In this document: positions 8,483 to 56,604 of the stretch, piece after piece
How positions within the stretch are numbered: position 1 is the first letter of the stretch
Layout of the letters: each line of letters begins with the position of its first letter
Position numbers and translations under genes: made by a program
The notes under the pieces: generated by a model
Seen by the model: only the letters and a program-made list of their open reading frames with translations
Database searches by the model: none
Told to the model about the DNA's origin: nothing
From: Chiloscyllium plagiosum
Taxonomy: Eukaryota
DNA: 64,000 nucleotides
Assembly (NCBI RefSeq): GCF_004010195.1
Contig: NC_057730.1
Span: 58,278,647 to 58,342,646, forward strand
Direction: 5' to 3'

Positions 8483-8537
8483 CAAAGTTTGGGAGAAGAT
8501 TTGTAGCTCGGGTGCTCGTTGTTGTGTAGAACCACAC
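8483..8537 (-). mobile_element. Tiny Penelope-like (family B) terminal fragment with 14-bp TSD
   Basis: CAAAGTTTGGGAGAAGATTTGTAGCTCGGGTGCTCG matches family B ends (9832, 37607, 53460); flanked by AGCAAC(T/C)ATAACTT at 8469-8482 and 8538-8551. Confidence 0.8.
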
Positions 8538-9831
8538 AGCAACCATAACTTTTTGTTTAATGTAGACACAGTTTGAAATCCTAGTTACAAGCCAAGTAGT
8601 GGTAGTTATGTTGGTGCAGGCTCAATGGGCCAAAGGGTCTTTTCTGTGCTGTATGAATCTATAGATAAAGCCAAGGATTCCAGTGTTCTGAACAAACAAA
8701 ATAAATTACTATAACCAAGTTAGAAAAATAATTCAATCTATTACATGTTCATAACTTTTATCCTAACATTCAGTAATGACACAAGGTAAATATGGGTAAC
8801 AGATTCAAACATCCTGTACAACACAGTAGTTAGCAAATGCAGCTAAGACAGATCCCACAGATTTCTCAGCAACCTCCTGATGTTAATGACACTATGGGTA
8901 ACTAGATCCAAATAACTTTTTCTATTTTGCAAGGTGTCTCAGTTCTTCACTTTTTAGCTTTGGAACTTCCTCATAAACTCTGTCAATGACTTCTCATGTT
9001 CAGGCACTGCAGTCTGTTCTTCTGAGACTGTATCCAACTGGATTCCCCAGCACAGGTTTAATCCCGGCTCTTCAGCAGATAGCCAGCTTCATTATAGTAT
9101 CCTGGGTGTGTCAGAACTTTTAATATTTCTCCCGCTGTGAGGCAAGTGCAACATGTGGACTTGGCTTATCTGCACTCTCTTAGCTGCACAGAACTATCAG
9201 TGTCTTCCAGAGAATTTGCCCTAACTGCCTGGAGTCTGCTAATGACAAAATTTCTGCTTTAGTGTTCTCCAAACTAAAAACTGCAAGTGACTTAAAACAA
9301 ACAAAAACAATACAGCGCAGGAACAGACCCTGCAGCCCACCAGACTGTGCCAACAGTGATGTTTTTCGAAACTAAAAACTCTTTGCCTCTCCACAGTTCA
9401 TATCCCTCTGTTCTCTGCCTATTCATACATTTGTAAAGATTCCTCTTAAATGATGCTATTGCATCTGTGTCCATCACTGCCTCTGGCAGCANNNNNNNNN
9501 NNNNNNNNNNNNAAATCTATGCTCTCCCTCCCCCCCCCCCCCCCCCCTTAGTAAATGACATTTCTCTTCTGGGGGAAATATACCCCAATTATCCATTCTA
9601 CCCTTCCCTCTCGTAATTTTGTAAATTTCTATCAGGTCACCATTCATCCTTCAACATTCAAGTGAAAACACACCATGTTTGTCCAAGCTGTCTTCATAGC
9701 TAATGCCCTGTCAACCAGACGACATCCTGATAAACTGTTTGTGTACTCTCTCCAAAGTCTCCACATCATCGTTGTAGTGTGGTGACTAGAACTGTACAAC
9801 AAGTCCAAATATGACCTAACTGAAGTTCTAT

Positions 9832-10367
9832 TCAACGTTTGGGTGAAGATTTGTAGCTCGGGTGCTCGTTGCTGTGGTTCTGTTCGCCGAGCTGGAAATT
9901 TTTGTTGCAAACATTTCGTCCCCTGTCTAGGTGACATCCCCAGTGCTTGGGAGCCTCCTGTGAAGCGCTTCTGTGGTGTTTCCTCCAGCATTTATAGTGG
10001 CCTGTCCTTGCCGCTTCCGGTTGTCAGTTTCAGCTGTCCGCTGTAGTGGCCGGTATATTGGGTCCAGGTCTATGTGTTTGTTGATGGAGTTTGTAGGGCA
10101 TTATAGGGCAAGCAAAACAAAGAACAGCCAGGGAATTCCTAGAAGCATGGCACTCATCCACAAACTCCATCAACAAACACATCGACCTGGACCCAATATA
10201 CCGGCCACTACAGCGGACTGCTGAAACTGACAACCGGAAGCGGCAGGGACAGGCCACTATAAATGCCGGAGAAAACACCACAGAAGCGCTTCACAGGAGG
10301 CTCCCAAACACTGAGGATGTCACCTAGACAGGGGACGAAACGTTTGCAACAAAAATTTCCAGCTCAG
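9832..10367. mobile_element. Penelope-like element family B, fold-back insertion with 11-bp TSD
   Basis: ~200-bp inverted arms; + strand encodes GIY-YIG C-terminal remnant (AKQRTAREFLEAWHSSTNSINKHIDLDPIY); TGAAGTTCTAT at 9821-9831 and 10368-10378. Confidence 0.9.
10308..10347 (+). ncRNA. Minimal hammerhead ribozyme motif (PLE family B)
   Basis: ACA-CTGAGGA-T-GTCACCT-AGAC-AGGGGAC-GAAA-CG-TT-TGC fits CUGANGA/stem II/GAAA/UH. Confidence 0.7.
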
Positions 10368-11624
10368 TGAAGTTCTATGTAACAGCAAAATGACTTGCCA
10401 ATTTTTGTACTCCATGCCCCGATTTAAGCATAATATATTGCCACCTTTTCCACCTCATCCACTTTGAGAGAATTGTGGGTCTGTATGCCTAGATCCCTCT
10501 GTCTGCTACTGAGGGTTCTGCCATGTATTGTGTACTTTCCTCCTGCATTAGATCTCACTAATTGCATCACCTCAAATTTGTCTGGATTAAACTCAATCTA
10601 CCTTTTTCTGCCCAAGTCTCCAGCCTATCCATAATTCTGCAGTATCCTCTGACAATCCTCCTCACTATCTGCAGCTTCCTTAGTCTTTTTGTTGTCTGCA
10701 AACTTACTAATCAGACCACCTACATTCTCCTCCAAATCATTTATATACATTACAAACAACAGGCGTCCCAACACTGATTCCTGCAGACCACCGGTCACAG
10801 ATCGCCAATCTGAAAAACTCCCTTTCACCGCTGCTCTGTGTCTTCTGTGACCAGGCCATTTTACCAGCTCACCATGATAAGATTCTCCAAGAAAATTTCT
10901 AGAGACTGTCACCAGAGAGCCATTTCAGCATTGTGAATCTTTATGATAATGTAGTTTGCTCTGAGGTAGTGTTTTCTAGTCTTTCAAAGTTCACCATTTT
11001 TCAGCTAACTTTGCTAAATCACAAAACAAATGTTTTTTTTTTCCTCGGTTCTGATGTTATAGAGTTATAGAGATGTCCAGCACAGCAACAGATGTATTAA
11101 ACAAACATGGGTAACTCCTTAAAGCAACTTGGCTCCAGTCTTTTAAATGCAATAGACTTTAAGGTGCTTCAATTACAGATTCATTTTCTTTCATTAACCT
11201 TGAAGTTTAAATCAAAAAAATTACTTATTAAACCAAGAAACAAGTTTTATTTGTATAGGGAGTGTTTGCAAAATTGCCACTTATTTAAGATAATGAGGTA
11301 GTTCTTGCAGAAATTTGAATTATAGTTTATTTTCAAAATTTATGTACAAGATGTTCTTATGTTTGGTTCTATTTTAAACCCTACAAGCATTTATCTTTTA
11401 TCTCCAACTTTTCCTTTGTTTGAAAAGAATTTGATAGCTGCTCAAGTGTAGAAATTGAAAATGTCACTTTGAACCACATCATAAGTCACACCACACAAGG
11501 TTATAGTCCAGTAGGATTTATTTAAAATCATAAGTTTTCAGAGTACTGCCCCTTTGTCAGGTAAAATGGTGGGAAGTGCAGAGGTACAGAATATACAGGT
11601 GAAGAGGTGATGGCAAGATAATTC

Positions 11625-11805
11625 CAGGTCTGGACCTCCTTCCCTGAAGGAGATTAATGAGCCAGAAGAGTTTTTCCAACAATTGGCAATGGTTTCATGG
11701 ACATTAGTAGATTCCTAATTCCAGAATTTTTAAAATTGAATCCAAACTCCACCATCTGCTGTGGCAGGATTTGAAGCTGGATCCCCAGAACCACTAGGCT
11801 ATTAC
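11625..11805 (-). mobile_element. tRNA-derived SINE fragment (SacSINE1/DeuSINE-like)
   Basis: Homologous to 18085-18610 and, in opposite orientation, 12836-13020; B-box-like GCTTCAAATCC on - strand. Confidence 0.6.
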
Positions 11806-12835
11806 CACCTGTAAAGAATCAAATTTTTACCCAGGGTTTTATTCCTTGATATGTCTAATCCTAATACACAGTCCAAAAATACACTGATCCTTCAACTGTG
11901 ACCATTTCCATCACTTTCTCCTTTTCCCATTGGTAGCTAAAGGTTTGTAATTTAAGCCCCAAGGTTTGAAGTGTCCTCTCTGAACCTCTGTCTATCCCTC
12001 CTCCTCTAAAACATGGATCTTTGATATCTATGCCTTTGGCCGATGTATAAAAGTGGAAACTTTTGTTACTTTTCTACATGTGTGTATAGTGGTCCAAGCT
12101 TCAGAAGAAACTGAAAGACTTCATTGTGTTAAGTCATTATAATAATTCAAAGTGCATCATTTAAGTCCACTCAAATAATGTGGCAATTTTATTACTATTA
12201 GAAATGCAACTAGGTCTGCTGCTGCCTTTATGATCACTCCTGAAATCCTCTCCCAGATCTAAAGATCATGAAAGAGTGGATTTTACAGCCATTTATTGGA
12301 AGACATTCGGCATCCTAGTTTCAAAATAAGTGAATAATCATTCTGCACAGAATAATGAAAATTACTTGAAATATTTTATCAGTTTGTTTAAAAGGGTAAG
12401 GATAATAATAATGGATATTGAATATTTTAAGATAAATTATATTTAACTGAAAGTATTGAATAAATGCCTCAATCACTACTTTGTATTTTCATCATAGTTG
12501 TCATAAATTATTTTAGTGGTATGTTCTAATTTTAGAGAACTGTAGCATGTCATAATTATTGAAAAATATCAAACCATTCCTTAAGAATAGGTGAGAAATG
12601 TTTTCTTTTGATATTGCCTAATAATCTATTGAGGTTTGGAACAATGCTGTACATATGAAACTAGCCAAATTGGAAATTACGAGGACAATATCCGAATGGC
12701 ATGTGGTTGAGATTTAATCCTGTGGTCAGACCTTTAATGTACTTTGCTTTCTCAGAAAATTGGTAATAGTTGCTTTTGTTGATGCAAAGCATTTCAAAAT
12801 TCTAAAAGTATATTTAGTTTTCAATAAATGTAGTC

Positions 12836-13020
12836 AATTGTTGGAAAAACCCATCTGGTTCACTGATATCCTTGAGGGAAGGTTACTGCCATCCTTAACT
12901 GAGCAGGACTATATGTGACTCCAGATGCACAGAAATATGATTGACTTTTAAGTGCCCTCTGGGATGGGCAATAAATGCTGGCCTACCCAGTGACACCCTC
13001 ATCCTATGAGCGAATTTTTT
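12836..13020 (+). mobile_element. SINE 3' half (SacSINE1/DeuSINE-like) with LINE-derived tail
   Basis: Tail GGGATGGGCAATAAATGCTGGCC..CAGTGACACCC resembles the 3' end of the LINE at 40888-41850. Confidence 0.65.
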
Positions 13021-13738
13021 AAAAAAACTTTAAATGCCACTGATTTTTTTTTCCATTTTTATGTGGTTGCAAATATTTTCCTCCAATGTTCGTGACTGGT
13101 AAAATTCTTCCTCTGTAATGTTTGCTTTGCTACTCTTGTATCTGAAGGCCGGTTTGACTTGCAGATTCTTTGTATTTTCTTTGAAGGTGATGCAGCTGTT
13201 TTGTTGTCACAAAATGAGTTGCAGTTGAGAACTTGAGACATTTGACCTTTGTGTCACTTCTAATTATTCTTTTGAACTTACCGTTCAAGTTCTACCAAAA
13301 ATGATGGGATAAGTTATGAAACTATCATGTTCTAATTACTCTGGCTCCTCCGCAAAGACAGCCTGATGTGTCTCAAAAACAGTCTTGTTACTTGGGCTTT
13401 CACAGTATATAGGAGTATTCACTGTATATATTTCACAGTATTTATGCCCTGACTCTGGCTCCTTTAACACAGTTATTGCATGGTCATTACATTTTGAAAA
13501 CTACAACTGCATATTAAAGTATTACTTGGAACTGCCACTATTTTGTGTTTGTCGTAACAATTTTCTCAGCACGATTGTTTCCTATTGCTCTTTATCTGTT
13601 TTTAATCCCAAAGAATTTTGCATAATGATAAGAGAACGATCATTTCAGTTATATTTAAAATCCATTAAATATCTGGTGTTTTGGTTGAGAAATTAAAATG
13701 CATTTGTAGTGTCCACTCATATTTTTTTAATTGATCAG

Positions 13739-13818
13739 AATCCAGACTTCCAGGAAGGGTGTTGAACAGTATAGACAAAGGTACCCAGAAAGCAGATTTC
13801 GTAAGAAAGCTGTTCCAG
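13739..13818 (+). CDS. CCP110: CCP110 penultimate 80-nt cassette exon (IQTSRKGVEQYRQRYPESRFRKKAVP)
   Basis: cag| acceptor, CAG|gtgtgt donor; resembles recalled human [28 protein letters not shown]; open in the required phase. Confidence 0.8.
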
Positions 13819-14376
13819 GTGTGTTGCTGAGTTTGTTCACATCCATCATCTGTTTTCTATTTCTTGTATATTTTTTATTTGTTCTATTCAGGTTGAGTTA
13901 GTTATTTTGTGTCTTGTTTTCTTACACCTTTCTGCAATGTTTACATAATTTGTCTTCCTTGCTACTTGTTTGGAATTTTAATGCCTTTTTTTCTCTCGTT
14001 CTATGTTTGCAAATCCCTCCACTCTCTGCTTAGAACCTTGTCTAGCCCCAGAATCCTCCAAGATATTGTTATCTAATTCTGGACTCTTGAGTACCCCTGA
14101 TTTTCATTCCTGTACCAATGGTGGCTCTGTCTTCATGTTTGGTCCTATCTTGGAATTCCATCCTCAGCCTCTGACTATCTTTCATCATTTCAGATTCCCC
14201 CAAAAATCTATCTCTTTGAGTCCTAATATCACCTTTATGTAGATTGATATCAAATTCTGCTTTAAAACAGAGCTCTAAAAGTGCCTTGGGGTGTTTGATT
14301 ACATTAAAGACGCTGTATAAATGTAAGTTGTTGTGATATACAACAGCCTCAGCTGAATGATGGAATGCCGTTAATT

Positions 14377-14520
14377 AGAGTCATAGAGATGTACAGCACG
14401 CAAACAGACCCTTCGATCCAACCCGTCCATGCCGACCAGTTATCTCAACCCAATCTAGTCCCACCTGCCAACACCCAGCCCATATCCCTCCACACCCTTC
14501 CTATTCATATGCCCATCCAA
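14377..14520 (-). mobile_element. CR1 extreme 3' end (5'-truncated)
   Basis: Reverse complement of the 3' UTR/tail at ~970-1113. Confidence 0.9.
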
Positions 14521-15159
14521 ATTCTGCTAACATGAGTAGCCTGAGAAGTATTGAAACTGGGGGATATACCTGGTTTCTATCATATCTGATCTGTGTATTC
14601 ATTATCAATTTTTTTTTCTCACTCTTTCCAGTTGCCTTTGTACTTCCTTGCATCTTTTTGTTTTCTTTTCCTATTTCTTTCAATCTCACTGCTTAGCACA
14701 CTCTCTTCAAGGCCAGTAAATTACCTTATTTTTTATTTTATTTTGGTTAGTTAGCATAGGTTATAAGAAATTGAAAATACTAATGTAGGCATCTGACTGA
14801 TCAAACATATTCCGTTATTACTACACCTCAGGATTTTGTGTTAATCTTATTAATATTTCCATTGTGGCATTTTGTTAAACAGGATCTGTTGATTTTCTGA
14901 GTGTTCTCTTTGCCTTTTAAAAATATACTATTGTGCATTAACACCACCTAGAATTCCAGTATTTTCAAAATCCCAGTAGGAGCTACTTTAATTCTAAGGT
15001 GCTCTATGTACAGTGCAATTCCTGATTGCGGGAGATAAGCAAGCTATTCAAATTGTAAAAACTTAACAATTATAAACCTATGGACCCCAATTTGACAAAA
15101 CGGGTAAGAGTTTCCTTGGATTTCATTGAAATGTAGAAACTCCATGCTAATAACTTTTT

Positions 15160-15659
15160 TAAAAGGGTTCAGAAAAGATTTAGGAGGATGTTGCCAGGGT
15201 TGGAGGATTTGAGTTATAGGGAGAGGTTAAATCGGCTGGGGCTGTTTTCCCTGGAGCATGGAGGCTGAGGGGTGAGCTTATAAGAAGTTTACAAACTCAT
15301 GCGAGGCATGGCTTGGATAAGTAGACAAGGTCTTTTCCCTGGGGTGGGGGAGTCCAGAACTAGAGGGCATAGGTTTAGGGTGAGAGGGGAAAGATATAAA
15401 AAAGAACCTAAGGGGCAACATTTTCATGCAAAGGGTGGTGCATGTATGGAATGAGCTGTCATGGGAATTGGGGGAGGCTAGTATGATTGCAACATTTAAA
15501 AAGCATCTGGATAGGTCTATGAATAGGAAGGGTTTGGAGGGATGTGGGCCAGGTGCTGGCAGGTGGGACTAGATTGGGTTGGGATATCTGTTTGGCATGG
15601 ACGAGTTGGACCGAAGGGTCTGTTTCTGTGCTGTACATCTCTATGACTCTGTGACTCTA
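15160..15659 (+). mobile_element. CR1 3' fragment
   Basis: Colinear with ~630-1113; CTCTATGACTCTGTGACTCTA tail. Confidence 0.92.
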
Positions 15660-18084: not shown

Positions 18085-18610
18085 TGTTTTATTTATTCTC
18101 AGAACATGGGCATTGCTGGCTAGCTCAGCATTTATTTCCCATCCCTAACTCCTCAGAGGGTGGTTATGAGTCATTCACCATTGCTGTGAGTCTGGATTTA
18201 GTGTAGGCCTAGTAAGGAAAGCAGTTTCCTTACCTAAACATTGAGTGAACCTATGCATTTTTAAGACAATCAGTAATAGTTTCATGATTGTCATTATTAT
18301 TCCAGATTCTCATTGAATTCAAATTCCACAATCTGCCATCATGGGATTCAAATCTGGGTCCCCAGAACATTGGGCGAAAGTGAGGACTGCAGATGCTGGA
18401 GATCAGAGTCAAGAGTGTGATGCTGGAAAAACACAGCAGGTCAGAATTCCTGATGAAGGAATTTTGCCCAAAATGTCGATTCTCCTGTTCCTTGGGTGCT
18501 GCCTGCTGTGCTGTGCTTTTCCGGCACCATACAACACTCCCCAGAACATTACACTAGTTCTCGGAATAAATAGTACAGTGATAATACCCTTATACCATTG
18601 TCTCACCCTT
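18085..18610 (-). mobile_element. Near full-length SacSINE1-like SINE interrupted by a PLE
   Basis: Tail at left, tRNA-like head at right (A-box-like TGGTATAAGGG; GATTTGAATCC); similar to 11625-11805. Confidence 0.65.
18372..18537. mobile_element. Penelope-like family A short fold-back insertion, 13-bp TSD
   Basis: GAAAGTGAGGACTGCAGATGCTGGAGATCAG end followed by inverted copy with degenerate hammerhead; TCCCCAGAACATT at 18359-18371 and 18538-18550. Confidence 0.88.
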
Positions 18611-20589: not shown

Positions 20590-21170
20590 CATGATTTGGA
20601 GACGCCGGTGTTGGACTGGGGTGTACAAAGTTAAAAATCACACAACAACGGGTTATAGTTCAACAGGTTTAATTGGAAGCACTAGCTTTTGGAGCGCTGC
20701 TCCTTCATCAGGTGGGAGAATAAGATTGTAAGACACAGAATTTATAACAAATGTTTACAGTGTGATGTAACTGAAATTATGTATTGAAAAAGACCTGGGT
20801 TGTTTAAGTCTCTCATCTTTTAGAATGACCATGTTGGTTTCAGTTCTTTCATAATGTAAATTGCAAAACGGTTTTTAAAAGTTACATTCTCAAGTGAACT
20901 TTAAAAATTGGTGTCATGTCGGCCCAGATAATGTACTTAAGGTGTTCGTTCCCTGTGCCATAATGGTCAGACTGATTCTAATCTAAAAAAGATTTACAGA
21001 ATCTTACATGGATTCATGCAGTTTTTGAGCAAAGTAAAATGTAATTCTGCAAGTTCAAATGCACCCCACAAACTTAAGTGTGTGTGTGTGTGTGTGTGTG
21101 TGTGTTGGGGGAGTTGAGAGTCTGTGTGAGTATAAAGGGGTTGAAGTCTGTGAGAGGGTGTGTGCGGGAG
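20590..21170 (-). mobile_element. Penelope-like family C terminal fragment
   Basis: Colinear with 22026-22789; hammerhead motif at 20680-20714 (-) with GAAA mutated to AAAA; internal (TG)n. Confidence 0.8.
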
Positions 21171-21292
21171 GATTACAGATACTGGAGAGTCGGAGTCAAA
21201 AAGTCTGGGGCAGGAACAAAATACAGCAGCTCAGGCGGGCATCCGAGGAGCAGGAGAGTTGACGTTTCATGCATAAGCCTTTCATCAGGACT
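21171..21292 (-). mobile_element. Penelope-like family A terminal fragment
   Basis: Degenerate GACTGCAGATGCTGGAG..GAGCAGGAGAGTTGACGTTTC..TCATCAGG. Confidence 0.75.
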
Positions 21293-21485: not shown

Positions 21486-21489
21486 CCTT

Positions 21490-22025: not shown

Positions 22026-22789
22026 AAGTTAAAAATCACACAACACCAGGCTATAGTCCAACAGGTTTAATTGGAAGCACTAGTTTTCGGAGCGACGCTC
22101 CTTCATCAGGTGGTTGTGGAGGGCTCGATCATAAGACAATTTATAGCAAAAATTTGCAGTGTGATGTAACTGAAATTATACATTGAAAAATTGATTTTCT
22201 GTTAAGCCTTTCATCTGTTAGAATACAGTGATAGTTTCACTTCTTTCATGTGTAAATCACAAAACCTTTTTTTTTTAAAAGTTACATTCTCAGGTTAGCT
22301 GTTAACAATGGTGATAGCTGGACAATATGTTGAAGGTGTTAGCCCCCTGTGTTCTCTGTCTATGCCATGATGTTTAGATTGATTCTAATCTAAAAAGTGA
22401 GATAATGAGTTTTACATGGATTCATGCAGTTTTTGAGCAAAGTACAATGTAACCCTGCAAGTACAAATTCACCCCACAAAATATGTGTGCATGTAGGTCT
22501 TTGTCGGTCTGTGTGTGTGTGTATCTGTCTGGGTTGGGGGTTGTGAGTGTGAGAAAGTGTGTGTGTGTGTAGAGAGTGCAGAGTGTTTTAAGTCTGTGAG
22601 GGGGTGCGTGTGGGTGTGTGTGTGTCCGTAAGGGTGTGTGTGGGTGTCTGTGTATATATGTGTCCATGTGTGTAGGAGTATCTGTGTGTGTGTGTGCGCG
22701 CGTATAGTGCAGTGGTGGTCACCTGTAATGTTACATGAACCTGAGGTCCCGGTTGAGGCCCTCCCTATAGGTACTGAATCTAGCTATCA
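22026..22789 (-). mobile_element. Penelope-like family C 3' fragment with 12-bp TSD
   Basis: Minus strand IARFSTYREGLNRDLRFM (PLE endonuclease C-terminal GLNRD motif); TATAATGAAGCA at 22014-22025 and 22790-22801. Confidence 0.85.
22078..22112 (-). ncRNA. Minimal hammerhead ribozyme motif (PLE family C)
   Basis: CAC-CTGATGA-A-GGAGC-GTC-GCTCC-GAAA-AC-TA-GTG; stem I CAC/GTG and 5-bp stem II. Confidence 0.75.
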
Positions 22790-23399
22790 TATAATGAAGC
22801 AGACAGTGCCTTTGTAAAACCTCTCTCTGAATAAGGAAAATGGCAAAATAACCCTGTCATTGCCACCTTTGCCATATTTCATTGTTACATATTCATGGTG
22901 GTACAGCAAGAACCCAAAGTCTTGTTATGTTGGCATCAAATTTTCCCAAAATTACCAAGTTGATCTTGAAATGGATTAATTTTGCTCGTGTTCAAGTGAT
23001 GACATAACAATGGGTGCGTTAATAAAAGCCATTAAAACTCGTGACATGAAAGAAGTTTATTGTCATTCACTGAATTTCATGGTTAATTTTAAATGTTGAC
23101 TGCAACATTTTTTGTTTACATTTTAAGCTAATGTTATCAGGAGGGGGGGGGGGGTAGTGAACGGATAGCTTTTGACTATTATAATTAGAGTATGGTAAGG
23201 CCACTGGAAAATATAAAAGCTGAATGAGTGCAGAAGATGAGGAGCAAAAAGTTGAGTCCATGAAGCATAAAGTTGGAAGCCAAGAAAATACACTGAGCGC
23301 AAACAGTGAGCTTTGGAGTAAATATGCCCCTGGAAAAAGTTCACAAACTGGTTGAAATAAATCTTTTCATGACTTTGGGAACAAACAGAACAGACAATG

Positions 23400-24261: not shown

Positions 24262-24385
24262 AATTCAGAACTGAAGCAGCGTTGCTGGACTTGAAACATG
24301 AACTCTGTTTTTCTCTCCACAGATACTGCCAGACCTGCTGAGTTTCTCTGGCAAATTCTAATTTTGTTTTAGATTTCCAGCATCG
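24262..24385 (+). mobile_element. Penelope-like family D terminal fragment (degenerate hammerhead)
   Basis: CTGAAGC..GGACTTGAAACATG..CAGATACTGCCAGACCTGCTGAGTTTCT; related pieces at ~43430-43570 and ~46060-46232. Confidence 0.55.
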
Positions 24386-28914: not shown

Positions 28915-30225
28915 CAATCGAAGGGAGAATAGCCATTTGGATACAGAACTGACTCAAAGATAGAAGAAAGAGGGTGGTGGTGGTGGTGGAGGGTTGCTTT
29001 TCAGATTGAAGGCCTGTGACTAGTGGTCTACTACAAGGATCGGTGTTGTGTCCACTGCCTTTTGTCACTTTTTTATATAAATGATTTGGATGCGAACATA
29101 GGAGGTATAGTTAGTAAGTTTGCAGATGACTCCAAAATTGGAGGTGTCGTGGGCAGTGAAGAAGATTCCCTCAGAGTATAACAGAATCTTGATCAGATGG
29201 GCTGAGGAATTTAGATCAATGTGACGTACTACATTTTGGAAAGATAACTCAGGGCAGGACTTGTACACTTTAATGGTAAGGTCCTAGGGAGTGGTGTTGA
29301 ACAAATATTTTGGAGTGCAGCTTCATAGTTCCTTGAAAGTGGAGTCTCCGATAAATAATATAGTGAAGAAGGCGTTTAGTATGCTTTCCTATATTGGTCT
29401 AAGTTGAGAGGTCATTTTGCAGCTGTACAGGACATTAGTTAGGCCACTTTTGGAATATTGTGTGCAATTCTAGTGTCTCTCCTAAAGGAAAGATGTTGTG
29501 AAACTTGAAAATCTTTTCTGAACCCTTACAAGGATGTTAGGAGAAAGTGAGGACTGCAGATGCTGGAGATCAGAGCTGAAAATGTGTTGCTGGAAATGCG
29601 CAGCAGGTCAGGCAGCATCCCAGGAGCAGGAGAATCGACGTTTCGGGCATGAGCCCTTCTTTAGGAATCATGCCCAAAATATCGATTCGTGAAGAAGGGC
29701 TCATGCCCGAAACGTCGATTCTCCTGCTCCTTGGATGCTGCCTGACCTGCTGCGCTTTTCCAGTAGCACATTTTCAACTTACAAGGAAGTTGCCAGGGTT
29801 GGAAGGTTTGAGCTATAGGGAGAGGCTGAATAGGCTGGGGCTATTTTTCCTTGGAGCGTCGGAGGCTGAGGGATGACTTTTATAGAGATTGATAAAATCA
29901 AGAGGGCATGGGTATGATAAATAGACAAGGTCTTTTCCCTGGGGTGGGGGAGTCCAGAACTAGAGGGCATAGGTTTAGTGTGAGAGGGGAAAATGGGCAA
30001 CTTTTTCATGCAAAGGGTGTGTGGTTATGGAATGAGCTTCCAGAGGAACTGTTGGAGGCTGGCACAATTACAACCTTTAAGAGGCATCTGGATAGATACA
30101 TGACAAGGAAGGGTTTAGAGAATTTGTGCCAAGTGCGGGCAAGTGGGACTAGATTAATTTAGGATATCTGGTCAACTGGCCGAGTTGGACCAAAGGGTCA
30201 GTTTCCATGCTGTCTAACTCTGAAT
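28915..30225 (+). mobile_element. CR1 3' part interrupted by a PLE
   Basis: Colinear with 1-1113; an older CR1 fragment lies at ~28060-28650. Confidence 0.9.
29539..29778. mobile_element. Penelope-like family A fold-back insertion, 13-bp TSD, mutated hammerhead motif on each strand
   Basis: ~95-bp inverted arms; TTACAAGGA(T/A)GTT at 29526-29538 and 29779-29791. Confidence 0.9.
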
Positions 30226-32710: not shown

Positions 32711-32840
32711 GAGAAAGTGAGGACTGCAGATGCTGGAGATCAGAGCTGACCTGAAGAAGGGCATATGCCCAAAATGTTGATTCTCCTGCTCCTTGGATGC
32801 TGTCTGACCTGCTGCGCTTTTCCAGCAATACATTTTTCAG
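32711..32840. mobile_element. Penelope-like family A short fold-back insertion, 15-bp TSD
   Basis: CATC(T/C)AATCAACTGG at 32696-32710 and 32841-32855; degenerate hammerhead CTGAAGAAGGGCATATGCCCAAAATG. Confidence 0.85.
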
Positions 32841-35098: not shown

Positions 35099-35534
35099 GT
35101 AAGGAATATGTTTGCTTCAGTGAAATGTATGACTTTCACCTTCAGTCAAAACTTTCACAATTTGGCAGGGTTGTGGAAGTCTGGAGGCGATACACTCTGA
35201 TCATAAGGGTTGGAGTAGAATTAAATCAAGTTGTTGTGGCTGATATGTTTCTCAACTTCATTCTCCTGCTTTCTTCCTATAATACTCAACCCCCTAACCA
35301 ATCAAGAACCCATTTATGACTGTCTTAAATACCACCAATGATTTGACCTCCATAGCCCTGTCCAACAATGAGTTCCATAGATTAACCATCCTCTGGATGA
35401 AGAAATTCATCTGTAGCTCAGTTCTGAAAGGTTATCCCTTAAACTCTAAAGCTTTGTCCTTGGATTCCAGTCTGTCCCACTTTTGGAAACACCTTCTCCA
35501 TATCCACTCTATCCAGGCCTCCCAGTATTCTTTG

Positions 35535-37048
35535 TTGTGTACATGGCAAAGGGGTATCCATGGGTTCCAGTTATGCCTGCCTGTTAGGGTATATGGAACA
35601 GTCCATCTTCTGCAGCTACACCTGCACCATTCGATACCTTTTCCTCCGCTACATCGATCAATGTATCAGTGCCACCTTGTGCTCCAACAAAGAGGTTGAA
35701 CAGTTCATCAACTTGGCGAACATCTACCACCCTGACCTCGAGTTCACTTGGGCCATCTCGGACACCTCCCTCCCTTTTCTGGACCTCTCCATCTCCATTT
35801 CCAGTGACCGACTCAACACTGACATCCTACTTCAAATCCATTGACTCCCACAGCTTATCTGGACTACACTGCCTCCCACACCCTCTCCTGTGAAAACACT
35901 ATTCCTTACTCCAATTCCTCCACTTCCATCACATCAGCTCCCAGGAGGACCAGTTCCACCATAGAAAATCCCAGATGGCCTCCTCCTTAAAGGACCACAA
36001 TTTCCCCTGCCATGTGGACAATGTTGCCTTCCAGCACATCTCCACTTCCCACTTCTCTGCCCTTGAACCCCACCCCTCCAATCGCAACAAGGACAAAACC
36101 CCCTTGATCCCCACCTTCCAACCAATCATCCTCTGGATACAGTGCATCATCATTTGCCATTTCTGCCACGTGCAAACAGATCCAATCACCAGGGATATAT
36201 TTCCCTCCCACCCCTATCTGTGTTCAACAGAGATTATTCTCGTTAGGTCCATGCCCCCCCACCAGCTCAAACCCCATTCCCGACACCTTCCCCTGCCATT
36301 GCAGGAAGTGAAGTGTAAAACCTGCGCCTACCCCCTCCCAAACTCCATCCAAGGCCCCAAAGGGTCCTTCCACATCCGACAGAGATTTACTTGCATCTCC
36401 ACATATGTCATCTACTGTCCATTGCTCCCAATGTGGTCTCCTCTACCTTGGGAACTTGTGACTTGTGGAACATTTCGGAGAACATCTCTGAGACACATGC
36501 ACTGAACAACCCCGCTGTCCTGTGGCTGACCACTTCACTTCAACTGCCCCTCCCACTCCACCAAGTACGTGCAAGTTATGGGCCACCTCCACTGCCAGAT
36601 TCTAGCCAACCGACAACTAGAGGAATAACACCTCGTTTTCCGCCTTGGGGCTCTCCAACCACAACGGATCAGTGTGGATTTCACCACATTCCTCATCTCC
36701 TCTCCCCCCATCTTATTTCAGATCCAACCCTCCAACTCAGCACCGCCCTCTTGAACTGTCCTACCTGTCCATCATCTTTCCCACCTATCTGTTCCACCCT
36801 CCTCTCCAACTGATTACCATCACCCCCCCACCCCAACCTCCATCTACCTATTGCATTTCCAGCTACCTCCCCTCCCCCACCGCGCCGCTTCCCATTTATC
36901 TCTCAGCCCTCTCCCACATTCCTGATGAAGAACTTATGCTTGAAATGTCAACTGTCCTGCTCCTCGGGTGCTGCCTGATCGGCTATGCTTTTCCAGCGCC
37001 ATACTTTTTGATTCTGATCTCCAGCATCTGCAGTCTTCACTTTCTCTC
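35535..37048 (+). mobile_element. Penelope-like family A, long copy (RT, GIY-YIG, terminal repeat with hammerhead), inserted in a - strand CR1 (~35205-37286)
   Basis: MGSSYACLLGYMEQ..FLRYIDQ..LPFLDLSI (PLE RT); TYVIYC (GIY-YIG region); CTGATGA..GAAATGTC at ~36921; family A terminus. Confidence 0.9.
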
Positions 37049-37606
37049 AGCATTCTGTAAGTTTCAATCAGATCCCCCCCATCGACCCTCTAAAACTCCA
37101 TAGTATAGAACCAAAGTCCTCAACCGCTCCTCATATGACAAGCCTTACATCCTCCAGATCATTCTTATAAACATCCTCTGAGACCAATACATCCTTCCTA
37201 GATAAGGGGCCTGAAACTGCTCACAATATTCCAAATGTGGTCTGACAAGAACCTTATACAGGCTCAGCCGTACATCATTACACTTGTAGGAGAAAGTGAG
37301 GACTGCAGATGCTGGAGATCAGCGTCAAGAGTGTAGTGCTGGAAAAGCACAGCAGGTCAGGCAACATTAGAGGATCAGGAGCATTGACATTTCGAGCAAA
37401 AGCCCTTAATCAGGAATGAGGCTGGGAGCCTCAGGGGTGGAGAGGTAAATGGCAGGGGAATGGGGCTGGGGGGAAGGTAGCTGAGTGTGCAATAGGTGGA
37501 TGGAGATGGGGGTAAAGTGATAGGTTGAAGGGTAGGGTGGAGTGGGTCGGTGGGAAGGAAGATGGACAAGTCATGGGGGTGGTGCTGAGCTGGAAGGTTG
37601 GAACTG

Positions 37607-38627
37607 TTCAAAGTTTGTGCGAAGATTTGTAGCTCGGGTGCTCGTTGTTGTGGTTCTGTTCGCCGAGCTGGAAGTTTTTGTTGCAAACGTTTCGTCCCCT
37701 GGCTAGGCGACATCATCAGTGCTTGGGAGCCTCCTGCGAAGCGCTTCTTTGACCTAGCAGCACTAGAATGCACACTCAGGAACAATGGACTGACAGAAGA
37801 GACACAACAAACAGTGAGACAAACTGTCGTACCTATGATAATAAGGAAAAGACAAACACATAACCTCAACACCAAGGAGAGGGAAGCACTGAAATCACTA
37901 AGAAACGATAAGAACATAATCATACTACCAGCAGATAAAGGCAGAATGACGGTCATCCTAGATAAATGTTGATGGAGTTTGTGGATGAATGCCATGCCTC
38001 TAGGAATTCCCTGGCTGTTCTCTGTCTGGCTTGCCCTATGATAGTAGTGTTGTCCCAGTCGAATTCATGTTGCTTGTTGTCTGCGTGTGTGGCTACTAAG
38101 GATAGCTGGTCATGTCATTTCGTGGCTAGTTGATGTTCATGTATGCGGATTGTTAGCTGTCTTCCTGTTTGTCCTATATAGTGTTTATACTGCACAAAAC
38201 TCTATATAGGACAAACAGGAAGACAGCTAACAATCCACATCCATGAACATCAACTAGCCACGAAACGACACGACCAGCTATCCTTAGTAGCCACACACGC
38301 AGACAACAAGCAACATGAATTCGACTGGGACAACACTACTATCATAGGGCAAGCCAGATAGAGAACAGCCAGGGAATTCCTAGAGGCATGGCATTCGTCC
38401 ACAAACTCCATCAGCAAACACATCGACCTGGACCCTATATACCAACCACTACAGCGAACAGCTGAAACTGATAACCGGAAGCGGCAGGGACAGACCACTA
38501 TAAACACCGGAGGAAACATCAAAGAAGCGCTTCGCAGAAGGCTCCCAAGCAATGATGATGTCGCCTAGCCAGGGGACGAAACGTTTGCAACAAAAACTTC
38601 CAGCTCAGCGAACAGAACCACAACAAC
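37607..38627. mobile_element. Penelope-like family B, rearranged fold-back copy
   Basis: Inverted termini; internal KEREALKSLRNDKNIIILPADKGRMTVILDK (PLE ADKG motif) and inverted GIY-YIG segments (YIGQTGRQLTIHIHEH). Confidence 0.9.
37683..37722 (-). ncRNA. Minimal hammerhead ribozyme motif (PLE family B), intact core
   Basis: GCA-CTGATGA-T-GTCGCCT-AGCC-AGGGGAC-GAAA-CG-TT-TGC. Confidence 0.75.
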
Positions 38628-39255
38628 CTTTTAAATGTTGTAATTGTACCAGCCTCCACCGGGGGGGAAATGAGGAAAATGCTGAAATCCACATTGATGC
38701 CCTGAAGTTCAAGGGTCCTGAGGTGGAAGATGTGTTCTTCCTCCAGGTGTCTGGTGGTGAGGGAGCGGCGATGGAGGAGGCCCAGGACATGCATGTCCTT
38801 TGCAGAGGGGGAGTTGAAGTGTTCAACCATGTGGTGGTGAGGTTGGTTGGTGCGGGTGTCCCGGAGATGTTCTCTGAAATGCTCTTGTGAGTAGGTGTCC
38901 TATCTCCCTAACATAGAGGAGACAGCACCGGGAGCAATGGATACAGTGAATGACGTGTGGAAGGCTAGGTGAAACTTTGCATGTGGAAGGCTCCTTTAGG
39001 ACCTTGGACTTGGGGGAGATGCGGGCGCAGGTTTTTGCAATTCCTGCAGTGGCAGGGGAAGGTGCTGGGAGGTCTGGGTGGGTTGGTGGGGGGGGGCGTT
39101 GACCTGACTAGGTTGTTGTGGAGGGCACGGTCTCTACAGAAAGCGGGGAGAGAAATATATCTCTGATGGTGGGGTCCGTTTGTAGGTGGCAGAGGATGTT
39201 GCAATGTATGTAGAGGTTGGTGGGTGGAAGGTGAATACCAGGAGGGTACTGTCCA

Positions 39256-39925
39256 TCATTATCCTTGTACTCTAGCCCTGTTGAAATTAATACTAACATT
39301 GCATTTGCCTTCCTAACTGCCAACTGAACCTGCATGTTAACCTTGAGAGAATCCTCAACAAGGATTCCCAAGTCCCTTTGTGTTTTAGATTCTGAAGCCT
39401 TTCCCCATTTAGAAAATAGTCTGTGCCCCTCTTCTTCCTCCTAAAGCACGCAACCTCACACTTTCCCACATTGTAATCCACTTGCCATTTCTTAGCCCAC
39501 TCTTCTCATTTGTCTAAGTCCTCCTGCAGCCTCCCTGTTTCCTCAACATTACCTGTTCCTCCACCAATCTTTGTCGTTTGCAATCTTAATAGCAATGTCC
39601 TCAGTTCTTTTGGCCTGTTCATTAATGTATAATGCAAATAATTGTGGTCCTAGCACTGATTCCTGAGAAACTGCGCCAGTCACTGGTTGACATCCTGAAA
39701 AAGACCCTTTTATCCCCTCTTTCTGCCAATCAGCCAGTCCTCTATCCATTGCCAGTACCTTGCCCCTCTCACTATGGGCTATATGTTAGTAGGCAGCCTT
39801 CTGCACGACACCTTGTCTGAAGCCTTTTTGAAATCCACACAGATTACCTCCACAGGCTCTCATTTGTCTAACTTGCTCATTACCACCTCAAATAAGTCGA
39901 ACAGGTTTATCAGGTAAGAGCGCCC
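39256..39925 (-). mobile_element. CR1 RT fragment
   Basis: SVLGPQLFALYIN; QVQLAVRKANAML. Confidence 0.82.
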
Positions 39926-40705: not shown

Positions 40706-40709
40706 CACT

Positions 40710-45783: not shown

Positions 45784-46234
45784 GTAAATGTGAATTTTCT
45801 CAAAGAATTTGCCTGTCGGACGAGGGAAGGGGGGGGGGTAAAGACTGTTAACTAGTGTAATTTAATTAATTGAATAGAAATAGTGTTGAAGACTAGAAGT
45901 TGACTCGAATAATCTGGCTGCAGGTTGCATAATTCCACTTTTGAAATTAATTGCCATTTTTTCTGAAGAACATTTTACTTTACCATTTTTCTTGGATTAC
46001 TGAAGTTCTGGGATATGAGACTACGAATGGAGCACAAGATGGGCCAGAAACACACAATAATGCTGCGGGATGCTGGAAATGTAAAACGAAAACAGAAATT
46101 ACTGGAAAAACTCAGCAGGTTGTGGAGAAAGAAATAGTGAATGTTTTGGGTCTGAAGTCTGATGAACCTGAACGTTGATTCTGACTCGACTTCCTCTCCA
46201 GATGCTGCCTGATCTGCTGACTTTCTCCATCGAT

Positions 46235-52000: not shown

Positions 52001-52565
52001 TTTTCAGAACGACTTAGACACTATCAAATGAGCCAAGGTCTCCTTGTATGTTGACCAGGCAGCAATTGCACGGTTCTGCAAGGCCTGCCCAGAGCCATTT
52101 GCTTTAAAGGTAAAAGTAATGGCAGAAATCTGAAGGCTGCAGAGCAAGGAATCATCAAACCAGTCCAGTTTGTAGATTAGGCAGAGCTGGTCATGTGGAT
52201 TGTGAAGCTCGATGGGTCGGTTCGCCTTCATAGTGATGTAAACAAATTGTGAAGTGTGTTTTGCAGCTGGATAAATACCCAATGCCTCGAATTGAGGATT
52301 TTCACTCAAAGCTAGCGGGGGAGGCGGCAGGCTGTCATTCAGAAGCTGGACCTGCATACTTGCAGTTGGATGAAGGTTCCCAGAAGTATTCTACAATAAA
52401 TACCCATGAGGATTTGTGCCAATATGAGGGTGCCTTTGGGGTATTGTAAGCCTGTGCAATTTTTCAACAGATGGTGGAGAACATTTTACAAGATCTACCC
52501 CAGGTTGCCATTTATCTGGATGACATGCTAATAACAGATAAGACCAATAAAGAGCACTTAACAAA

Positions 52566-53459
52566 GAGCAAAGGTTAGAACAAACAGTCTTACCACAAAT
52601 TCAACCCAAACTCTGGGTCAGATACGTTGATGACACCTTTGTAATCATTAAAAACACGGAAATAGAGAACACACACCGGATCATCAACTCCACACTCACA
52701 GGAATCCGATTCACGAGAGAGGAAGAAAAGGACAACCAACTCCCATTCCGAGACGTGAGGGTACAGCAAGCATGCCAAATGCCTTCTTCACCACCCTGTC
52801 TACCCGTGACATCACTTTCAAGGAACTATGTACCTAAACCCCTAGCTCTCTGTTTGACTAGACTCCCCAGGGCGCTACCATTAACTTTGCAAGGTTTGCC
52901 CTGGTTTGTCTTAGATAAATGCAAGGTGTTGCATTTTGGTAAGTTAAACTCAATTTTCCACTCCTCAGCATATTGGCCCATCTGATCAATGTCCCACTGT
53001 ACTCTTAGATAAGATTTTTCACTGTCCACTATACCACCATCCATGAACATCAACTAGCTACGAAACGACACGACCAGCTATCCCTAGTAGCCACACACGC
53101 AGACGAGAAGCAACATGAATTTGACTGGGACAACACTACCATTACAGGGCAAGCGAAACAAAGAACAGCCAGGGAATTCCTAGAAGCTTGGCACTCATCC
53201 ACAAACTCTATCAACAAACGCATAGACCTGGACCCAATATACCGGCCACTACAGCGGACAGCTGAAACTGACAACCGGAAGCGGCAAGGACAGGCCACTA
53301 TAAATGCCGGAGGAAACACCAGAAGCGCTTCACAGGAGGCTCCCGAGCACTGATGATGTCACCTAGACAGGGGACGAAACGTTTGCAACAAAAACTTCCA
53401 GCTCGGCGAACAGAACCACAGCAACGAGCACCCGAGCTACAAATCTTCTCACAAACTTT
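52566..53459 (+). mobile_element. Penelope-like family B inserted in Gypsy RT, 14-bp TSD, containing a - strand CR1 fragment (~52770-53040)
   Basis: PKLWVRYVDDTFVII (PLE RT); GIY-YIG C-terminal remnant; GAGCACTTAACAAA at 52552-52565 and 53460-53473. Confidence 0.92.
53347..53386 (+). ncRNA. Minimal hammerhead ribozyme motif (PLE family B), intact core, sense in VPS35L intron 6
   Basis: GCA-CTGATGA-T-GTCACCT-AGAC-AGGGGAC-GAAA-CG-TT-TGC; stem I GCA/TGC; palindromic AAACGTTT. Confidence 0.78.
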
Positions 53460-55228
53460 GAGCACTTAACAAACTTGGATATAGACCTTAAGACATTTCT
53501 CTCGATTTCTCCTCAAAAGGGAAAATGTAATCCAGGCACCCAAGTGATTTACTTGGGCTACAGAATAGTTGAGATCAGTTTACACCCATTGGAAGATAGT
53601 GAGAGTGATCAAAGATGCCCTGGGTCACAAGCTCCAGAGCTTTGATCTTTCCTTGAGCTGATGAACTATTATGGAAAGTTCATACATAACCTGGCCCCCT
53701 TCCTGGCACCTTTGCTTTAACTCTTAATGGTCAGAGTTGGAAATGGTCACGTAGCCAAGTGATAGCTTTCAAGGAAATGAAGAAACAGCTACCATCCTCG
53801 AAGGTGTTCGTACGTTATGATCCCATGTGAGGTCTGGTATTGACATACGATGCCTCCCCCTACAGCATCAGGTTAATATTAGCTCATAGCTGGCACAATG
53901 GAGTGGAACACCCAATAGCATATGTATGCCGAACTTTGGCTAATGCAGAGTGTAAATACACCCAGGTACAGAAGGTTTAGCAGTCATATTTGGATTCTGG
54001 AATATCTTTTATGGATGTAAGTTCTTAACCTCTGTAAGGTCCAATTAGTGGACCGTGCATTGCTGCCCTCAGCTCGGACAGAGTTCAGAGATGACCTCTA
54101 ATACTAAGTGTGTATCTAAGTTGGAACGCTATCCTGGAGGCCAAGTCACAAATACAGATACAGAATTCTACTTCATGTCCAGCCATTTGTAGACATCCAC
54201 AATGACTAAGATCATTAAGCCCACGAAAGGACCTGCACAGTTGATTGGTAACTCAGTCCAGAATTGAACCACCTCCCTGCTGGTACCAGTGGTACTGCCA
54301 CTGGAAGAATCTGTAATGGTTTTGAATTTTCTGGACACACTTACTTTCAGTCACAGCTGATAATATCAGACTTTGGATGCAGAAAGATCCTGTCCTGGCA
54401 AATCTGAAACAGCTAGTGGTGATGAGGGATATCAAAGGGCTGTTGAAACCAGAATTGAAACCTTTTTGGACTTAGACCAGATCACAGTAGAGGATGGCAT
54501 GTTATGGGGAGCAAGAATGAATTTAGAATATCTTTTATTGTCACATGTATTCCAGTACAGGAGTAGAGTGAAAAGTTTTTACAATGGCTGCCTTTAATGG
54601 TGACATCTTAGGTACAAGTACCTAGGTACAAATCTTAGATACAAAAGAGGGATAAAAGGAAATGTAATAGCATTACTCAGTGTCTTTTAATAAAAAGTTA
54701 GAAATTACATAGTTATAACATAAAGGATTGACATTACAGTCTGGTAAAGAATTTCAATTAGCAGCAGTTCAGCACATGGCCTGACTGCCTGTGCCAGTCC
54801 AACATTTGTCCCACTGCACTAACACTCGGCTGCGCCAAGGTAAGTTGTGCTGCTCTGGGACTTGCTTCCCCCCCACGCTGTTGTTCCAAGCTGACCTCTA
54901 CCATAGTTGTCCAGAAGTTTCTAAAATGAAGACATTGGCAAGAGGTTAAGCCTTGTGGCCAGGATTGGATGCTGACATAGTTGCATTACCAGAGTGCCAA
55001 CAAGGCCAAAAATTACTGTCAGCAGCTCCCCCACTTCTGTGCAAATAACTAGATAAATCCTGGACTCAGTTATGCATGTCCTTTTGTGGACTTAATGATC
55101 TTAGTCATTGTCGGTATCCACAAATGGCTGGACATGCAGTAGAGTTGTTTTGTCAAACAAGGGTGATGAAGATAGAAAGGTAGCTCTCATCTTTTGCAAT
55201 ATACAGACTTTTAATAGTATTGGTCAGA

Positions 55229-56105
55229 GTGGGGTGTCTTTATGCGAAGGTTGGTAGGGTGGAAGGTGAACACCGGGAGGGGGGGGCGGCGGCGTTCTGT
55301 CCTTGTTACGGTTGGAGGGGGGGGTCCGCCACCTCCAAACGGACCCCACCATCAGGGATATATTTCCTTCTCCACCCCTTTCCGCCTTCCGCAAAGACCC
55401 ACGTCCCCCCCCCTCCCCCCACCCTCCCATCCTGGCACCTTTCCCTGCCACCGCAGGAATTGCAAAATCAGTGCCCACACCTCCTCCCTCACCTCCATCC
55501 AATGTCCCAAAGGAGCCTTCCATGTCCACCAATATTATTTGTTGTATCCGTTGCTCGGGATGCAGCCCCCTCTACATTGGGGAGACTGGCGCTTTAGGGA
55601 ACATCTCTGGGACATCTGCACCAATTAACCACACCGCCCTGTGGCCCAACATTTCAACTCCCCTCTCCCACTCTGCCAAAGACATGGAGGTCCTGGGCCG
55701 CCTCCACTGCCGTTCCCTCACCACCCGACGCCTGGAGGAAGAACGTCTTATCTTCCGCCTCAGAATACTTCAACCCCAGGGCATCAATGTGGACTTCACC
55801 AGTTTCCTCATTTCCCCCCACCTCACCCCAGTTCCCAACTTCCAGCTCTGCACTCTCCCCATGACTTGTCCTACCTGTCTATCTCACTCCACCCTATTCT
55901 CTGACCTATCCTCTTCATCCCCAACCCCACTCACCTATTGTATTCTATGCTAATTTCTCCCCACCCCCAACCTCCTCTCATTTATCTCTCCACCCTGCAG
56001 ACACTCTGCCTCTATTCCTGATGAAGGGCTTTTGCCTGAAATGTCGATTTTCCTGCTCCTCGGATGCTGCCTGAACTGCTGTGCTTTTCCAGCACCACTC
56101 TAATC
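55229..56105 (+). mobile_element. Penelope-like family A with short 5' inversion, 14-bp TSD, inserted in Gypsy integrase
   Basis: NIICCIRCSGCSPLYIGETG (GIY-YIG); TAGTATTGGTCAGA at 55215-55228 and 56106-56119. Confidence 0.92.
56015..56049 (+). ncRNA. Minimal hammerhead ribozyme motif (PLE family A)
   Basis: TTC-CTGATGA-AGGGC-TTTT-GCCT-GAAA-TG-TC-GA; core intact, CpG-type decay in stems. Confidence 0.65.
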
Positions 56106-56449
56106 TAGTATTGGTCAGATAATGGGCCATCATTTACCATCAGAGATTTTGAGTAATTTCTGAAGTTGAATGGTGTTCGACATATAAATATAGCTCCTTA
56201 TCATCCATTATCCAATAGTCTGGCAGAAAGCACTAGCCAAACACTTGAAGACAGGCAAGTGGGAGAGAGAGAGAGAGTTTACTTCAGGAGATGAAGTGGT
56301 ATAGGAACCACGATAATGGCCCTGCATGGGTAAGAGGCATGATCAGGTCCAGTGACATATAAAGTTTGGGTAAGTGTGCCAATCCTGAATGTGGACTAAA
56401 TGAAAGCTGAAGATGCATGTGTAAAGCAGGCTTGGCCCCTTGACAGCCT

Positions 56450-56604
56450 AGGAGAAAGTGAGGACTGCAGATGCTGGAGACCAGAGTTGAAAAATGCCAG
56501 GCAGCATCCGAGGAGCAGGAGAATCGATGTTTCGGGCATAAGCCCTTCCTCAGGATGCTGCCTGACCAGCTGATCTCCAGCATCTGCGGTCCTCACTTTC
56601 TCCT
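56450..56604. mobile_element. Family A fold-back with near-perfect inverted ends (MITE-like), hammerhead motif at 56523-56556 (-)
   Basis: AGGAGAAAGTGAGGAC..GTCCTCACTTTCTCCT; minus strand ATC-CTGAGGA-AGGGC-TTAT-GCCC-GAAA-CA-TC-GAT. Confidence 0.82.

Follow-up and report, generated by a model that had tools for sequence, protein, structure and literature searches.

The stretch analysed here (the window) comprises 64,000 nucleotides of the shark Chiloscyllium plagiosum (contig NC_057730.1, positions 58,278,647 to 58,342,646 of the forward strand). It is rich in repeats, has a GC content of 41% and is depleted of CpG (observed/expected 0.285). Segments derived from Penelope-like elements (PLEs) account for about 8.3 kb, or 13% of the window according to a hand-made list, and fragments of CR1-type reverse transcriptase (RT) genes are present as well. 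The end repeats of the PLEs (pseudo-long terminal repeats, pLTRs) contain real minimal hammerhead ribozyme sequences, most copies of which are mutated. We consider it highly probable that three motif families, termed A, B and C, represent minimal type I hammerheads in the pLTRs of a Neptune-like (A), a Poseidon-type (B) and a likely Neptune-like (C) element, and that their copies are scattered, truncated, often folded back and mostly mutated; the source elements would cleave conditionally. Sites are numbered by the position of the core residue C3, and ends of arms are counted relative to C3 (family A) or to the ATG (family B). Coordinates are collected in Table 1.

A strict descriptor, written after the motifs had been seen, required CTGANGA, 0–1 extra nucleotide, a stem II of at least 4 pairs with at most 1 mismatch, GAAA, 2 nucleotides, TH, and a stem I of at least 2 bp. 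It matched six sites in the window (family B, 10311+, 37719− and 53350+; family A, 56018+ and 56553−; family C, 22109−) and none in any of 40 dinucleotide shuffles. When up to one core change was allowed, 11 matches were obtained as compared to a shuffle mean of 0.275. As copies inside one family are not independent, the number of independent families is three. All six strict matches have an extra base after A9 and a G at position 10.1, neither of which the descriptor demands and both of which agree with the published consensus; the closing pair is G-C in five of them and G.U in one. The CUGANGA and GAAA boxes and the UH dinucleotide are intact in six copies across families A, B and C, and broken in the D-type relics described below. 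Core, both stems and the ACGT palindrome are all intact in three of the 18 A–C sites, and these three (10311, 37719 and 53350) belong to family B.

Independent material was provided by 64 metagenome loci that had been chosen by RT homology alone and were scanned with a relaxed motif. Fourteen motifs were found in 13 loci (shuffle mean 0.23), eight of them palindromic (shuffle mean 0.1). Their stems differ, and the eight fall into about five distinct families; five of the 14 motifs belong to a single family that comes from two related assemblies. The motifs lie downstream of the open reading frame (ORF) in sense orientation, or upstream of it in either orientation. One locus (L007:231-2800) combines an intact minimal hammerhead having an ATAT palindrome with an 835-amino-acid PLE ORF that starts at C3+57. 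We give practically no weight to chance matches inside repeats as an explanation. The post hoc descriptor, the lack of a hammerhead family among 11 Rfam matches at E≤5 (a scan proposed with the original prediction) and weak folding z-scores would agree with it, but it is refuted by the shuffle control and the metagenome loci, and in three unrelated families the motif has the location and strand that are expected. The top Rfam matches were miRNA models on the centre of a fold-back at 38141-38240.

The original prediction had listed 14 motif coordinates. Motif-derived sequence is present at all of them, each listed number marking one end of the span; the strict descriptor is matched at six and failed at eight, and the palindrome is kept in addition at three, all of family B. 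With homology searches, the total rose to 10 sites in family A, 5 in B and 3 in C, together with as many as three D-type relics, the additional ones being A 18450, 32751, 37413 and ~57608, a diverged C site at ~11560, and D-type 46159 and ~43500. The consensus proposed for family A is matched by none of the six A copies listed for it, nor by any of the further A copies. That of family C is a composite to which neither listed copy conforms: 20711 carries G12>A and 22109 reads AACT, so that the AGCT palindrome occurs only with a broken core. ACGT and AGCT, both claimed, thus do occur (ACGT in four of five B and three of ten A copies; AGCT in one of the two listed C copies). Of the five B sites, 10311, 37719 and 53350 proved intact, whereas 9943 (A6>G, ATGT) and 38552 (C3>A) are mutated. 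The description of family D as degenerate was correct, since 24271 lacks A9 and stem II and has G at H17.

For protein comparisons, 208 proteins were searched against the window. Families A and B, as had been proposed, are tied to PLE-type RT and GIY-YIG sequences at strong E values, C is tied weakly (E=0.009), and D is not. A Pfam search of 10 frames gave matches only in two frames of the CR1-type RT and none in the other eight, which include all frameshifted PLE pieces.

Judged by its proteins and repeats, family B is a Penelope/Poseidon-type PLE with the hammerhead in its 3′ repeat. GIY-YIG remnants lie directly upstream of four of the five B motifs, and the fifth motif is in an inverted 5′ repeat. 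Protein relatives of B show a DKG motif plus a GIY-YIG domain at the C-terminus and are devoid of the CX2-5CxxC linker; a DKG motif together with absence of the linker zinc finger is the Penelope/Poseidon pattern (PMC8557442). A pLTR with hammerhead, an inverted 5′ copy, a tail of 30–40 nt and target-site duplications are all present. The copies are 88–97% alike, and the RT piece at 52569-52769 shares 88–92% identity with predicted proteins of Chiloscyllium punctatum, 82% with Hemiscyllium and 67% with Stegostoma. In B, an ATG is made up of residue A9, the extra U and G10.1. In the three tailed copies no stop interrupts its frame before the tail ends, and in the predicted protein P0005 the reading frame from the B motif runs on into the RT; the start chosen in the P0005 model itself is an earlier ATG, located within the TATA box. 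The hammerhead overlaps this likely start codon at A9, with the predicted cut site 28 nt after the ATG. In a zebra-shark protein, the peptide footprint of both boxes is kept and the loop is different. Counted from the ATG, B copies have their 3′ ends at +106-112 or +55/+70.

Family A is classified as Neptune-like. Remnants of RT, linker or endonuclease (EN) matching protein P0058 were found upstream of three of ten A motifs (36922, 37413 and 56018), and the other seven stand at the head of short units, most of which are head-to-head inversions. P0058, like its relatives, has a CX2-5CxxC linker plus a GIY-YIG domain at the C-terminus; the copies in the window are degenerate. In a quick tree of 22 proteins selected from 210, none a named reference element, A-like and B-like proteins were separated by a branch that has an SH-aLRT of 100. 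As Nematis elements also have the linker, the name Neptune rests on motifs. Family C is probably a second Neptune-like PLE, as suggested by a 30-residue remnant that is separated from its motif by a CA-rich spacer. Family D shares the downstream module of family A and has no coding remnant, and is thus not clearly an independent family. Of the three, possibly four, families originally proposed, A and B are accordingly real and C is a likely third.

Table 1. Features of PLE-derived units in the window (ordered by family; site numbers are C3 positions).
Feature	Positions	Strand	State and remarks
B hammerhead 53350	53347..53386	+	intact (descriptor); predicted cut after 53383, ATG 53356
TATA-like box and initiator-like sequence upstream of B motif	53299..53335	+	TATAAAT 53299-53305, TTCACAG 53329-53335; putative promoter
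B insertion with pLTR and tail	52566..53461	+	12-bp target-site duplication; protein matches: RT with YVDD 52569-52772, antisense CR1 RT 52768-53039, GIY-YIG C-terminal part 53033-53329
B hammerhead 37719	37683..37722	-	intact; lies in an inverted 5′ pLTR copy that has a tail and starts 29 nt upstream of C3
B hammerhead 38552	38549..38588	+	C3>A; 3′ pLTR without tail
B ORF remnants	37754..38562		N-terminal with DKG 37754-37969 (+); GIY-YIG 37968-38186 (-); GIY-YIG 38167-38562 (+)
B hammerhead 10311	10308..10347	+	intact core and palindrome; stem I of 2 bp
B hammerhead 9943	9907..9946	-	A6>G, ATGT; other arm of fold-back unit 9822-10371
B insertion, tail only	8483..8537	-	no hammerhead; 14-bp target-site duplication
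A hammerhead 56018	56016..56047	+	core intact, ATGT, G.U closing pair; downstream of Neptune-like EN remnant
A linker and GIY-YIG remnant	55324..55845	+	P0058, E=4e-33
A hammerhead 56553	56524..56555	-	core intact, ACAT; within a short fold-back unit (56449-56604)
A RT, linker and GIY-YIG remnant	35482..36664	+	frameshifts and stops; P0058, E=4e-79
A hammerhead 36922	36920..36951	+	stem II broken, ATGT
A hammerhead 37413	37384..37415	-	G8>T; 3′ repeat of EN remnant 38664-39260 (-), split by B unit
A hammerhead 29664	29635..29666	-	G5>A; fold-back unit 29538-29779, 14-bp target-site duplication
A hammerhead 29689	29687..29718	+	C3>G; other arm of unit 29538-29779
A hammerhead 32751	32749..32780	+	G12>A; fold-back unit, 15-bp target-site duplication
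A hammerhead 18450	18448..18479	+	G12>A, stem II broken; fold-back unit, 13-bp target-site duplication
A hammerhead 21288	21259..21290	-	core and ACGT kept; mismatches in stem II and stem I (G1.1>A)
A hammerhead relic	57579..57612	-	three core changes
C hammerhead 22109	22078..22112	-	core intact, AACT
Probable C-terminal end of Neptune-like GIY-YIG protein, upstream of C motif 22109	22722..22829	-	P0141 residues 675-705 of 707, E=0.009, weak
C hammerhead 20711	20680..20714	-	G12>A, AGCT intact
C-like relic	11483..11562	-	diverged
D relic 24271	24268..24370	+	A9, stem II and H17 broken; followed by module shared with A
Second D-type relic	46156..46230	+	CTGATGA at 46159, rest degenerate

Target-site duplications of 12–15 bp flank five of 12 units tested, with scores of 11–13 as compared to 9 for the best of 300 random flank pairs; three of the short A units carry duplications of 13–15 bp. 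Of 15 A arms, seven start at −1 to −8, five at +35 to +91 and three extend into the ORF; a start at the cleavage site (+28) was seen in none. A tail is present on one arm only in six of seven fold-back units of families A and B, as judged by eye.

These ends bear on a different origin of the short A units (100–240 bp), which might be a self-propagating non-autonomous family, resembling a short interspersed element or a retrozyme monomer, with transcription starting shortly before the hammerhead and mobility provided by the Neptune-like protein, and not products of truncation. Seven of ten motif-bearing A arms begin 1–8 nt from C3, in each DNA run more than 1,000 contigs depart from the reference at 56014, which is 4 nt ahead of C3, sequencing depth over the A pLTR is about 5–10 times that over its EN remnant, and retrozymes have been described as derivatives of PLE pLTRs. 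We nevertheless regard this origin as rather unlikely: a tandem hammerhead array is absent (none of 16 TRF rows overlaps a motif), the junctions differ in every unit, and most are head-to-head inversions, which is the described pattern of PLE insertion. Moreover, the consensus of the loose ends at 56014 resembles another, upstream pLTR subfamily (agreement 0.32–0.33), so that part of the pile is not due to truncation.

In family A, 8 of 110 core cells were changed, compared to 34 of 386 non-CpG cells of the downstream repeat and 17 of 60 CpG cells; three CpGs lie within 10 nt of the core. The core has changed as fast as the flanks. The copies are decaying neutrally, and most copies in the window are likely inert. 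Stem positions in A are paired in 81% of cases, as opposed to 14–43% in slid controls. The stem covariation that the original prediction had asked about is seen as different pairing stems between families A, B and C, and likewise in the metagenome loci, although selection by the descriptor makes this partly circular; within family A it did not exceed shuffles.

Several findings weigh against hammerheads that belong to PLEs and are cleaved in their source elements: (i) a full-length PLE was not found within the 64-kb window; (ii) family C is linked to PLEs by one of the 208 proteins, a linker-bearing one matched over its last 30 residues at E=0.009, and none of the 208 revealed a PLE-type coding remnant upstream of D; (iii) seven of the 12 units tested lack a duplication above the random range; (iv) stem I of family A has only 2 bp, and two-sided changes in this family (three pairs) were as numerous in 79 of 500 shuffles, with corresponding values of 113 of 500 for the score and 16 of 500 for cells; (v) folding z-scores were weak (−1.5 to +0.1), and predicted homodimers did not adopt the hammerhead fold; (vi) a long ORF opening at A9 was seen in none of 11 metagenome motifs checked, and overlap with the start codon is therefore not universal; (vii) read ends in RNA run X21, which is a weak test, did not pile up at predicted cut sites, the only pile being at 56570. 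As to folding, the predicted minimum-energy structure of both intact B monomers is a long inactive hairpin; failure of folding and co-folding to give the active form is expected for minimal motifs and hence uninformative.

Regarding cleavage, helix III is cut down to a 4-nt palindrome, and a lone source RNA therefore likely cannot cut. Monomers of such motifs were reported to be inactive and dimers weakly active (PMC4209133, PMC6765202). The motif of a source element likely cuts slowly once two copies pair via the palindrome, or once the element's own protein holds the RNA. In family B, where the motif lies over the probable start codon, a cut 28 nt downstream would remove the cap and the AUG and end translation; cleavage in source elements might also resolve tandem transcripts. 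Insertion would copy RNA that has not been cleaved, with priming at two sites that lie downstream of the motif and are separated by about 40 nt, a step deduced from the insertion ends and from work on Anolis. Two priming sites on an uncleaved template would account for retention of the whole motif and for a tail that is mostly confined to one arm. A same-strand tandem pair of intact motifs is not present in the window; adjacent pairs are on opposite strands and cannot form a cis dimer. The two same-strand C copies were considered as a dimer pair and rejected, being separate old insertions 1.4 kb apart that are 76% alike and have mismatched palindromes.

The closest parallel is the Poseidon element PAc of Anolis carolinensis (Frangieh et al. 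2024, PMC11167929), in which the ORF runs from stem II, the cut is 26 nt downstream and reverse transcription is primed at +111-118, with a tail between two priming sites. In vitro, the PAc ribozyme does not cut unless protein is present, and insertion does not require the ribozyme. Family B is similar in that its ORF seems to start at the base of stem II, with the cut 28 nt after the ATG (26 in PAc), an outer 3′ end at +106-112 (+111-118 in PAc) and an optional tail of about 40 nt; PAc was studied in vitro, and family B is represented only by fragments in the window. Because B repeats the Anolis start-codon overlap in a distant vertebrate, a role as translation switch becomes directly testable. 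Work on Anolis also lends some credit to the view that the motifs are vestigial even in source elements, do not cleave in vivo and persist because the sequence serves as promoter, start codon or protein-binding site: insertion is normal in hammerhead mutants, and RNA-seq reads ending at the site were reportedly absent. Naiad PLEs are described as having spread without canonical hammerheads, and the missing read ends in X21 point weakly the same way. Yet boxes, extra base, stem II and palindrome recur across the deep split between A and B and in unrelated metagenome elements, and the Anolis motif does cleave with protein, with rescue in C3G/G8C. We hold a purely vestigial role to be unlikely and conditional cleavage in source elements to be the better reading.

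The copy load was assessed on 52950-56650, where 175,002 and 182,963 contigs from two DNA runs were placed. Near-exact flank contigs gave a depth of 12–15, while the summed depth reached 1.5 and 3.0 million in the B motif bin and 5.9–7.5 million in the A repeat bins, values that indicate orders of magnitude only and are no copy numbers. Set against the flank depth, these sums point to roughly 10^5 copies of B and 5x10^5 of A; contig overlap could inflate depth up to about 30-fold, which would place the floor near 3,500 (B) and 17,000 (A). A load of 10^4-10^5 or more per family is likely, and the very large load originally anticipated is borne out, for the A and B repeats, by contig depth. The window holds 18 sites, 6 strict and 3 intact ones per 64 kb and is no random sample. 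If its density is scaled to a genome that we take to be 3–4 Gb in size, the upper range of the depth-based load is obtained. By comparison, about 4,000 minimal hammerheads were counted in coelacanth and about 9,000 in Xenopus (PMC4209133), and at most 14,255 tandem retrozymes have been reported.

RNA reads were taken from X21, a single poly(A) single-cell run of which 2% was read; 5,075 reads were placed, 95% of them running into other loci. Over the B motif bin the reads were biased 192:25 (about 8:1) to one strand, and the A bins were near balance; oligo-dT priming on the A-rich strand could cause this bias, and the library orientation is not established. This bias, the three intact B copies and a high copy number that would supply dimer partners might be taken as signs that some copies were domesticated by the host as active ribozymes cutting host transcripts in cis or in trans. 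Such domestication appears highly improbable: the A core is no better conserved than its flanks, the 88–97% likeness of B copies explains their intactness by youth, nearly all placed reads come from other loci, the bias may reflect priming, and published in vitro rates are low. An extended version, with about 10^5 intact-core hammerheads, at least 10 times the number in any catalogued vertebrate, a young, sense-transcribed family B that provides both the partners and its own protein for trans cleavage, as dimers, of host pre-mRNAs containing intact copies, and cleavage within the element as a cap and start-codon switch, is in our view very unlikely. Decaying pLTR copies derived from conditionally cleaving source elements remain the preferred reading.

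Fish, coelacanth, frog and reptile PLEs have been known since 2014 to carry minimal hammerheads in their repeats. Cervera & De la Pena (2014, PMC4209133) described them in Xena, Poseidon and Neptune elements of metazoans, including fishes, coelacanth and Xenopus, and the motifs found here agree with theirs in being type I, in CUGANGA, the extra base after A9, G10.1-C11.1 and the short helix I, in a helix III that is a palindrome (CG or GC between A15.1 and U16.1), and in the occurrence of several consensus families per genome, mostly as single truncated copies and opposite-strand pairs. They differ in that family A, with a stem II of 4 bp and a stem I of 2 bp, is shorter than most entries, and in a copy load that looks higher. 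No shark was found in the searched text of that paper. Family A resembles Neptune PLEs (Craig et al. 2021, PMC8557442) in its RT, CX2-5CxxC linker, C-terminal GIY-YIG domain and pLTR hammerhead, and also in its inverted, 5′-truncated copies with a tail at one end. Non-LTR retrozymes (Li, Clavereau & Pollet 2026, bioRxiv 10.64898/2026.07.22.740005), reported from one chondrichthyan genome, are likewise non-coding pLTR-derived units with type I hammerheads; they form head-to-tail tandem arrays with a hammerhead in each unit, whereas no motif here is in a tandem array, and eight of nine Xenopus dimers tested in that study did not cleave. The original prediction left open whether the ribozymes of this lineage have been catalogued; no shark-specific hammerhead catalogue was found in the literature, and Repbase, Dfam or the 2014 and 2026 supplements may hold the families. 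The new part is possibly the very high copy load. Sharks add scale and a test bed for the role of PLE hammerheads: from insertion junctions numbering in the hundreds of thousands it would become apparent if insertion is ever templated by cleaved RNA.

Further observations concern the structure of individual units. In all five B copies, a 10-nt palindrome (GAAGCGCTTC, 53321-53330 in the copy at 53350) is located about 20–30 nt upstream of the core; it is paired in homodimer folds and could aid dimer formation. The 55-bp segment 8483-8537 consists of the family B tail and a few bases of the inverted arm, and might represent a minimal product of the two priming sites. In unit 52566-53461, which sits in sequence resembling a remnant of an LTR retrotransposon, the antisense CR1 RT fragment lies between the RT and EN pieces, possibly as a result of a template switch onto CR1 RNA. 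A nested insertion was found at 37287-39260, where a rearranged B unit (37604-38627) interrupts an A element on the minus strand; the latter adjoins a second A element on the plus strand (35482-37062). The nearest non-shark named relatives of the B RT, found with P0004, P0013 and P0022, come from tapeworms (elements of Spirometra and Sparganum, identity about 46%), a likeness that, given the thin sampling, does not suggest transfer. Downstream of the hammerhead, A and D have a nested hairpin module in common (GATGCTG...CAGCATC; 29538-29635 on the minus strand, 24300-24370 and 46190-46230), which is a candidate protein-binding or priming element (folding z-score −0.7).

Outside the PLE-derived units, the GC-rich frame 2861-3259 had no protein homologue among 7,540 candidates in a search for host genes. 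It lies within 2750-3701, where a GC- and CpG-rich region containing what we take to be CCAAT- and CRE-like words is followed by a tandem repeat of units of about 33 bp and an assembly gap; this region is possibly a promoter.

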